DNA of 43,794 nt from IMG/VR virus record IMGVR_UViG_2734482574_000013; one strand, 5' to 3'. Of the stretch, positions 1,553 through 18,210 are shown one piece after another (position 1 is the stretch's first letter; every line of letters starts with the position of its first letter). The DNA comes from a virus. Its lineage: Duplodnaviria > Heunggongvirae > Uroviricota > Caudoviricetes. The notes beneath the pieces are model-generated. The model had not been told where the DNA came from. It was given only the letters and a program-made list of their open reading frames with translations, and searched no databases. The position numbers were made by a program, and so were the translations under genes.

Positions 1553-1741
1553 TCACGAGGACTGAAGTTTCTCGCAATTAAAATTTATCAGTTTTACTTT
1601 CTGCTCTCTGGAAACGCCTGCTTCTTTTTTACCTGAGAGCATTTTTTCGCATTCTGATTTCGTTAGTTTAGATTTTGAATATCTTGTCCAGTTAGTAGGA
1701 GTGCCACCTTCCTTTTCAATAGTGGCGGTAATTTTATACAT
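1553..1741 (-). CDS. ydaC: YdaC-like small phage protein (62 aa, starts MYKITAT)
   Basis: Strong RBS GGAGG 5 nt before the ATG at 1741; the track ORF 1553-1813 is an upstream extension overlapping ralR in another frame. Confidence 0.7.
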   Translation of the reverse strand: MYKITATIEKEGGTPTNWTRYSKSKLTKSECEKMLSGKKEAGVSREQKVKLINFNCEKLQSS

Positions 1742-1940
1742 GAACACCTCCATTATTATTTCCAGTGGTTCGTTTATTTCATCGTTCGAGTGCTTCTTTT
1801 TCACTTCCACCATAACCGGTTCGGGATTCGCATCCGTTACACTTCGCTCGGTAATATCCTGAAATGGCTTTCACCGTTACTGATGGACAACCACAAAATG
1901 GACATGGTTTAACATTGTCATATCTCATAATTTTTCTCAT
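1734..1940 (-). pseudogene. ralR: Restriction-alleviation protein RalR/Lar interrupted by an in-frame TGA (plus-strand tca at 1779-1781)
   Basis: Minus-strand reading MRKIMRYDNVKPCPFCGCPSVTVKAISGYYRAKCNGCESRTGYGGSEKEALER-stop-NKRTTGNNNGGVHV-stop; Cys-rich zinc-finger-like pattern; counted from MRYDN (ATG at 1928) an intact product would be 64 aa, the length I recall for RalR. Confidence 0.6.
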
Positions 1941-1983
1941 AAAAATATTTCAAGTTGGCGGTGCATTACACCGCCAGGCTGAA

Positions 1984-17620: not shown

Positions 17621-18210
17621 GGCTGGTTTATTGTATGCCAAATGATTATTAAAAAGGTTGTGTTAATAACAAGATCCGAAATAATATGCCTGCATATTTT
17701 TATCTTGCTTATATTCTGCATATTGTGCATAGCAGGCTCATCCCTGCAATCAAAACTGTATGATGAGTATTTTTTGTTTTCCTTTTTTCCAGTCATCTGA
17801 TGATGACCTGCTTCTTTTTAATCCGGATCGACATCAGTTTTTTAAGATAATTCCTGCGAGTTATATGCATAAATGCCACAAACTCCGCATTTTATGTGGT
17901 TGGGAGTTGCCGGGCGCGCAGTGAGTTTGCTAAGAAAACTCCTGCATGGTGAATCCCCCTGTGCGGTGGGGTGATACCATTAACCTTTTCTGTCGCCGAC
18001 AGGTATCACGAACATTTTGTTCACCGGGAGGCACCCGGCACCATGCACTTCAATAGATTCTCTCCACATTATGGATATTCTTTCAGAATATCCCACGCAG
18101 ACTTTGTGTAAATGTTAACAAATGTGCGTTTTATTTGATCTGATTCGCTGTTTGAGCGTCCAAAACAACGGTATATATAATCCTTTACTATATGACATAT
18201 GTGAGGAAAA

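Follow-up and report, generated by a model that had tools for sequence, protein, structure and literature searches.

Organisation of the ralR locus

The window, the whole 43,794-nucleotide stretch of DNA that was analysed, is a Rac-type prophage of full size that is integrated beside ttcA. E. coli NCTC10444 matches its first 25 kb at 100.0% identity over 98% of the query, and in that genome the region runs intR-xisR-DUF1187-ralR-recT-recE-racC-kilR-sieB and on through ydaS/T/U/V-like genes to the lysis, trkG, terminase, capsid and tail genes. The prophage in the window likewise carries terminase, P22-like capsid, tail and lysis genes together with trkG, unlike the 23-kb Rac of K-12, and the NCTC10444 annotation gives ynaK and a tolA-like fragment as pseudogenes. 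A full-length sRNA of the STnc100 family (RF02076, 86.6 bits, gathering score 47) also lies within the prophage, at 17914-18100 on the plus strand.

The ralR (lar) reading frame is on the minus strand, where 49 sense codons (MRYDNVKPCPFCGCPSVTVKAISGYYRAKCNGCESRTGYGGSEKEALER) run from an ATG at 1928-1926 to an opal TGA at 1781-1779, giving a truncated coding sequence at 1779-1928 that has the same extent in RefSeq (150 nt). Past the TGA the frame stays open for 14 further sense codons (NKRTTGNNNGGVHV, 1778-1737) up to a TAA at 1736-1734, and this orphaned 3' end (1734-1778, N51 to V64 and the original stop) meets the following gene in the octamer ATGTATAA (1741-1734), which contains both the old ralR TAA and the ATG of ydaC/rcbA (1741-1739). 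Translation bears out the layout proposed by the first-pass annotation, an in-frame TGA in ralR followed by 14 sense codons and a TAA that overlaps the ydaC start, while the upstream limit given there, 1940, is an extra in-frame ATG (MRKIMRYDN..., ORF 1779-1940, 53 aa); the start in both RefSeq and K-12 is the ATG at 1928.

The adjoining ydaC/rcbA gene (1553-1741, minus strand) encodes 62 aa, of which residues 2-62 align to positions 1-61 of the 61-position Pfam model PF06688 (132 bits), and identical genomes carry it under the name DUF1187 family protein. A Shine-Dalgarno-like hexamer, GGAGGT, precedes its ATG by about 4 nt (1746-1751, minus strand) and lies inside the orphaned ralR tail, so that ydaC probably initiates independently of ralR translation. 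Antisense to ydaC is the RalA antitoxin sRNA (1557-1735, plus strand), which matches Rfam RF02694 over its full length (positions 1-179 of 179 in the model) at 225.1 bits, the gathering score being 170; it occupies the same position as b4714 in K-12 and has no internal difference from it. RalA blocks RalR through a 16-nt pairing inside the ralR coding region (PMC4041452), and both published sequences are present and identical to K-12, the site in the ralR mRNA (AAGTGAAAAAGAAGCA, 1791-1806, minus strand) and the complementary repeat in RalA (TGCTTCTTTTTTACCT, 1619-1634, plus strand). A SNP that breaks RalA pairing was considered and rejected, as the ralR site ends 10 nt upstream of the altered base and is unchanged. 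On the other side of ralR, between it and the recT stop, lies a GC-rich hairpin conserved in K-12 (GGCGGTG TAATG CACCGCC, 1957-1975, minus strand), which might act as a terminator or attenuator and hold down transcription of ralR from the recET operon.

In the Rac prophage of K-12 MG1655, ralR (b1348) has 195 nt including the stop and encodes 64 aa (NP_415864.1), the length that the first-pass annotation gave for RalR; it overlaps rcbA by 8 nt, and the sRNA gene ralA (b4714) is antisense to rcbA. Alignment of the window with K-12 reveals four differing places across about 500 nt. Just upstream of ralR, a T-run directly preceding the first in-frame ATG (1941-1945, minus strand) has five T against six in K-12; the R49 codon (1782-1784, minus strand) is CGA against AGA, a synonymous change linked to the stop; codon 50 is TGA in place of the Trp codon TGG, the altered base being 1779; and ydaC/rcbA ends in TGA where K-12 has AGA. 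Only two bases, at R49 and codon 50, distinguish the 195-nt ralR reading from K-12, so its likeness to ralR reflects homology and not chance, and past the premature stop 45 of 45 nt are the same. This is exactly the change that the first-pass annotation had supposed, TGG to TGA through a plus-strand C to T at 1779, with 15 residues cut from the product. At the fourth place, the ydaC stop (TGA at 1553-1555, minus strand) gives a 62-aa protein that fits the full DUF1187 model, whereas K-12 RcbA has seven more codons (69 aa); as the O145-type allele likewise has TGA here, the K-12 protein looks like a stop-loss extension. The SNP in this stop (1555) is 2 nt upstream of the RalA 5' end.

Conservation of the lost residues and distribution of the allele

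The position of the stop was compared with the Lar family by a profile search of 1.84 billion representatives, which returned 3,968 members at E<=0.001; residues were counted in 201 aligned domains out of the best 145 of these proteins. W50 is present in 192 of the 201 domains, the other nine being gaps, N51 in 187 and R53 in 168, and these three residues are conserved to the same degree as the four zinc-ribbon cysteines (C9 in 194, C12 in 193, C30 in 191 and C33 in 194). The family alignment stops at about residue 54-56, leaving T55 to V64 as a non-conserved tail. Salmonella and Citrobacter homologs read L-x-R-W-N-[KR]-R at the stop point, none of the other members among the 201 domains has a stop in the W50 column, and in the wider sample no family member ends before the W, E. 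coli truncation variants excepted. Because the W is conserved across the family and WN[KR]R is found in Salmonella and Citrobacter, TGG is the ancestral state.

At 49 aa the product is 77% of the full RalR length of 64 aa. It lacks W-N-x-R, as W50 is the stop and N51 and R53, which with K52 are still encoded in the orphaned tail, lie downstream; the stop in this way takes from the protein the signature C-terminal motif of the Lar family. All four cysteines of the predicted zinc ribbon (C9, C12, C30 and C33) are kept. Pfam PF14354 scores the truncated protein at 39 bits against 53.5 for the untruncated one (cutoff 28.6), and TIGR03655 at 40.3 against 55.3 (cutoff 39.6, a marginal pass by 0.7 bits). 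The RalR equivalog model NCBIfam NF007260 gives 126.9 bits, covering only model positions 1-49 of 64, against 166 for the 64-aa read-through sequence (cutoff 113).

The allele is not confined to the window. A 601-nt query around ralR has matches of 100% identity in many finished genomes, and allele frequencies were counted in a sample of 5,426 complete E. coli genomes using 55-mers with the SNP at position 28, each 28-nt megablast seed being forced to include the SNP base. The TGA allele is present in 310 of the 5,426, in every case as the exact CGA-TGA 55-mer (100% identity), and its carriers include O157:H7, O26, O111 and O103 and isolates of human, bovine and poultry origin. TGG is found in 1,631 genomes, 1,154 of them with the exact AGA-TGG 55-mer of K-12, and the exact CGA-TGG haplotype in 123. 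The opal allele is carried by about 6% of complete E. coli genomes and roughly 16% of those with ralR. An AGA-TGA haplotype was not seen among the 310 TGA genomes, and as every TGA sits on CGA the haplotype counts fit a single origin of the stop on the CGA (R49) background. The one-step ancestor, CGA-TGG on the same backbone, was not found in the four CGA-TGG genomes examined of the 123 (O145 RM9467, O157:H7 7.1_Anguil, L73 and ML35), in all of which the RecT module is a different one and the 5' end of ralR diverges more.

The exact 49-aa protein occurs on at least 1,000 contigs of a large protein collection, under the standard RalR/Lar names. RefSeq has it as an intact reading frame (WP_001443846.1) named 'type I toxin-antitoxin system endodeoxyribonuclease toxin RalR', with the same extent in the 100%-identical genomes, and it bears this name because its NF007260 score is still above the cutoff. 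The allele is already catalogued, widespread in E. coli, natural and inherited, and the passages on RalR in the most relevant RalR and O157 literature do not discuss it. Reference alleles that end at the same codon, which the first-pass annotation had expected to tell against a truncating mutation, do exist (310 complete genomes and the RefSeq 49-aa CDS); the reading as a nonsense mutation stands, and what these alleles dispose of is the option of a sequencing error and any idea that the change is special to the present genome. The practical significance is for annotation only, where RefSeq presents the 49-aa product as the RalR toxin without a flag. As the label is given despite the absence of the motif, the most conserved one of the family, and of residues that toxicity has been shown to require, surveys of RalR/RalA probably over-count functional toxin-antitoxin systems, in O157:H7, O26, O111, O103 and other strains.

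Consequences for RalR and alternative readings

The first-pass annotation named ralR for restriction alleviation, which is only part of the current picture, as current annotation makes the gene product a non-specific DNase that serves as toxin in the RalR/RalA type I pair (PMC4041452). Over-production of RalR is toxic, with a ~10^3-fold loss of CFU, and its cleavage of DNA is non-specific (Guo et al. 2014, PMC4041452). In the same study changes at residues 14, 37, 39, 49, 51 and 52, obtained by error-prone PCR, lower toxicity, and a purified residue-52 mutant does not cleave DNA (PMC4041452); residues 51 and 52 fall past the premature stop. A 64-aa homolog modelled with AlphaFold2 from five aligned sequences (mean pLDDT 70, moderate confidence) has strands at 17-22, 25-30 and 36-39 and a helix at 43-58, and the stop would cut this predicted C-terminal helix roughly in half. 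Because the removed residues reduce toxicity or abolish DNase activity when singly substituted, and because the helix is cut, the 49-aa product has most likely lost all or most of its activity as a toxin, and the published residue-51 and residue-52 mutants argue against DNase toxicity of the truncated form. The published work is inconsistent in naming its inactive mutant A154G, for which the text has 'K52Q' and the plasmid table 'K52G' (PMC4041452); an A154G change in the codon AAA (codon 52, 1775-1773 in the window) gives GAA, K52E, which is consistent with the residue number and not with either substitution label.

What 'loss of function' means here hinges on which function is real, since the DNase assignment comes from a single study and is at odds with the earlier report of restriction alleviation, of which Guo et al. 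report none for RalR (PMC4041452). If the function of Lar/RalR is revisited in the light of this conflict, the allele offers a ready-made natural C-terminal truncation. Sequence searches of solved structures gave chance matches to CbpD only. Foldseek with the model of the 64-aa homolog returned nothing at E<=0.001 and nothing resembling a known nuclease fold. A likeness to the zinc ribbon plus helix of ELOF1/Elf1 (best full-length superposition TM about 0.6, E>0.2) was too weak to use; a weak NCBIfam Elf1 match (E = 0.004) parallels it.

The window holds a natural W50-to-opal allele of ralR with RalA, its 16-nt target and ydaC untouched, and we consider it highly probable that the stop is of single origin and that the toxin has been disabled first. 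One G to A change (plus-strand C to T, 1779) on the CGA background would have created the opal codon, and the loss of W50, N51 and R53 would leave a 49-aa product that is non-toxic or strongly attenuated, and so a toxin-antitoxin pair in which the toxin is knocked out first and the antitoxin persists. We regard the gene as an ordinary nonsense-disabled prophage toxin gene. Other independent lesions of ralR in the databases lend anecdotal support to recurrent disabling: W50 is replaced by S in one variant, the frame shifts after T54 in another, and in two further proteins RalR is fused to YdaC. One fusion, of 67 aa, joins ...GGSEKEA straight to GVSREQKVK..., the junction falling exactly on the two 16-nt RalR/RalA repeats (about 1619-1806 in the window), and the other, of 96 aa, joins ...SEKE to GGTPTNW...; these fusions look like deletions via short-repeat recombination, which would remove or truncate ralA.

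Several other readings of the allele can be weighed against this one, of which the strongest takes the 49-aa protein for a functional short form, kept by selection for zinc-ribbon restriction alleviation or DNA binding without toxicity. Retention of the whole zinc ribbon and passing scores with the RalR, Lar and Pfam models (NF007260, TIGR03655 and PF14354) do count against loss of function; residues 1-49 are unchanged, RefSeq makes no pseudogene call, and the allele is common and lies in an apparently complete prophage. That it has spread over a number of STEC serotypes, and over other lineages too, would equally suit a neutral or even advantageous short form that keeps some activity. We nevertheless think this unlikely, as such a form would have to do without W50, N51 and R53, nearly invariant over about 200 diverse family domains, when single changes at 51 and 52 suffice to reduce toxicity or DNase activity (PMC4041452), and only E. 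coli truncation variants share an end before the W; E. coli ralR sequences are themselves too alike for testing selection on the short form. It is more improbable again that the opal allele, rather than being simply dead, is tuned in dosage, yielding ~1% of wild-type RalR by UGA-to-Trp read-through, or is a separation-of-function zinc ribbon that binds DNA or EcoKI and has no DNase toxicity. If true, either form could explain why the allele persists in major STEC lineages and in a Rac-type phage that is apparently complete, and with tuned dosage the level of RalR could depend on the RF2 allele and growth state of the strain.

Among the stop codons of E. coli UGA is the leakiest, and tRNA-Trp misreads it, so that rare read-through would restore the exact wild-type 64-aa RalR at a low level; an A right after the stop, as here, is not a strong termination context. 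The ralR tail (1734-1778) has no translation except by such read-through. Programmed recoding, in which the UGA is read as Trp or selenocysteine at a regulated rate to give dosed full-length toxin, might draw on the return of the wild-type residue by near-cognate tRNA-Trp and on the 45 undamaged nucleotides downstream. The ribosome-binding site and start of ydaC and the 3' end of RalA, however, place other constraints on the tail, and divergence within E. coli is low, so that the intactness of the tail is uninformative on translation, and a stop in the W50 column is absent from the other family members among the 201 domains. A selenocysteine or structured read-through signal was rejected: the fold of the 76 nt that span and follow the UGA is no more stable than that of shuffled sequences (MFE -8.3 kcal/mol, z = 0.07) and contains no SECIS-like hairpin, and Rfam finds only RalA there. 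Programmed recoding is on this evidence very improbable. As no SECIS-like structure is present, any full-length protein could arise only by background read-through of the UGA, and nothing suggests programming. There is hardly any probability left for an error of sequencing or assembly at 1779, since although a single base separates the window from the K-12 reference at this codon, the identical 55-mer is found in the 310 independently finished genomes, the exact protein recurs on contig after contig of the protein collection, and a second, synonymous SNP lies 5 nt from the stop and is linked to it. Equally negligible is the reverse direction of change, in which TGA is ancestral and a stop-to-Trp change lengthened the K-12 protein by 15 residues; K-12 does have one stop-loss extension next door, in rcbA, but W-N-x-R is found at the same position in Salmonella, Citrobacter and thousands of Lar-family proteins, and the Pfam and TIGR models run through it.

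Relation to known systems

The natural nonsense allele is most directly compared with the RalR/RalA pair of the K-12 Rac prophage (b1348/b4714; PMC4041452), with which it shares the gene order recT-ralR-ydaC/ralA-xisR-intR next to ttcA. Residues 1-49, RalA and both 16-nt repeats are identical in the two; the window differs in a product without W50-V64, in CGA at R49, in one T fewer upstream and in a ydaC seven codons shorter, and its prophage of about 45 kb has head, tail and lysis genes whereas Rac of K-12 is a 23-kb remnant. With the Lar family (PF14354, TIGR03655) the 49-aa product has the CxxC...CxxC zinc ribbon in common, but it ends just before the invariant C-terminal W-N-x-R motif.

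In 1995 King and Murray reportedly described Lar as a functional analogue of lambda Ral, active in alleviation of EcoKI restriction and in enhancement of modification. Lambda Ral has a similar early-region position in a lambdoid prophage. It is not a sequence relative, the identity quoted by Guo et al. being 24% (PMC4041452).

A further comparison is with the hok-like loci of E. coli K-12, chromosomal type I toxins that are mostly inactive and decayed (cited in PMC4041452). As in those loci, the toxin gene is disabled by a simple lesion and the antisense-RNA partner persists; unlike them, the lesion here is one nonsense codon common to many lineages, and inactivation of the toxin is deduced from the residues lost. 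A toxin that is knocked out while its antitoxin persists is a familiar course for chromosomal and prophage toxin-antitoxin loci.
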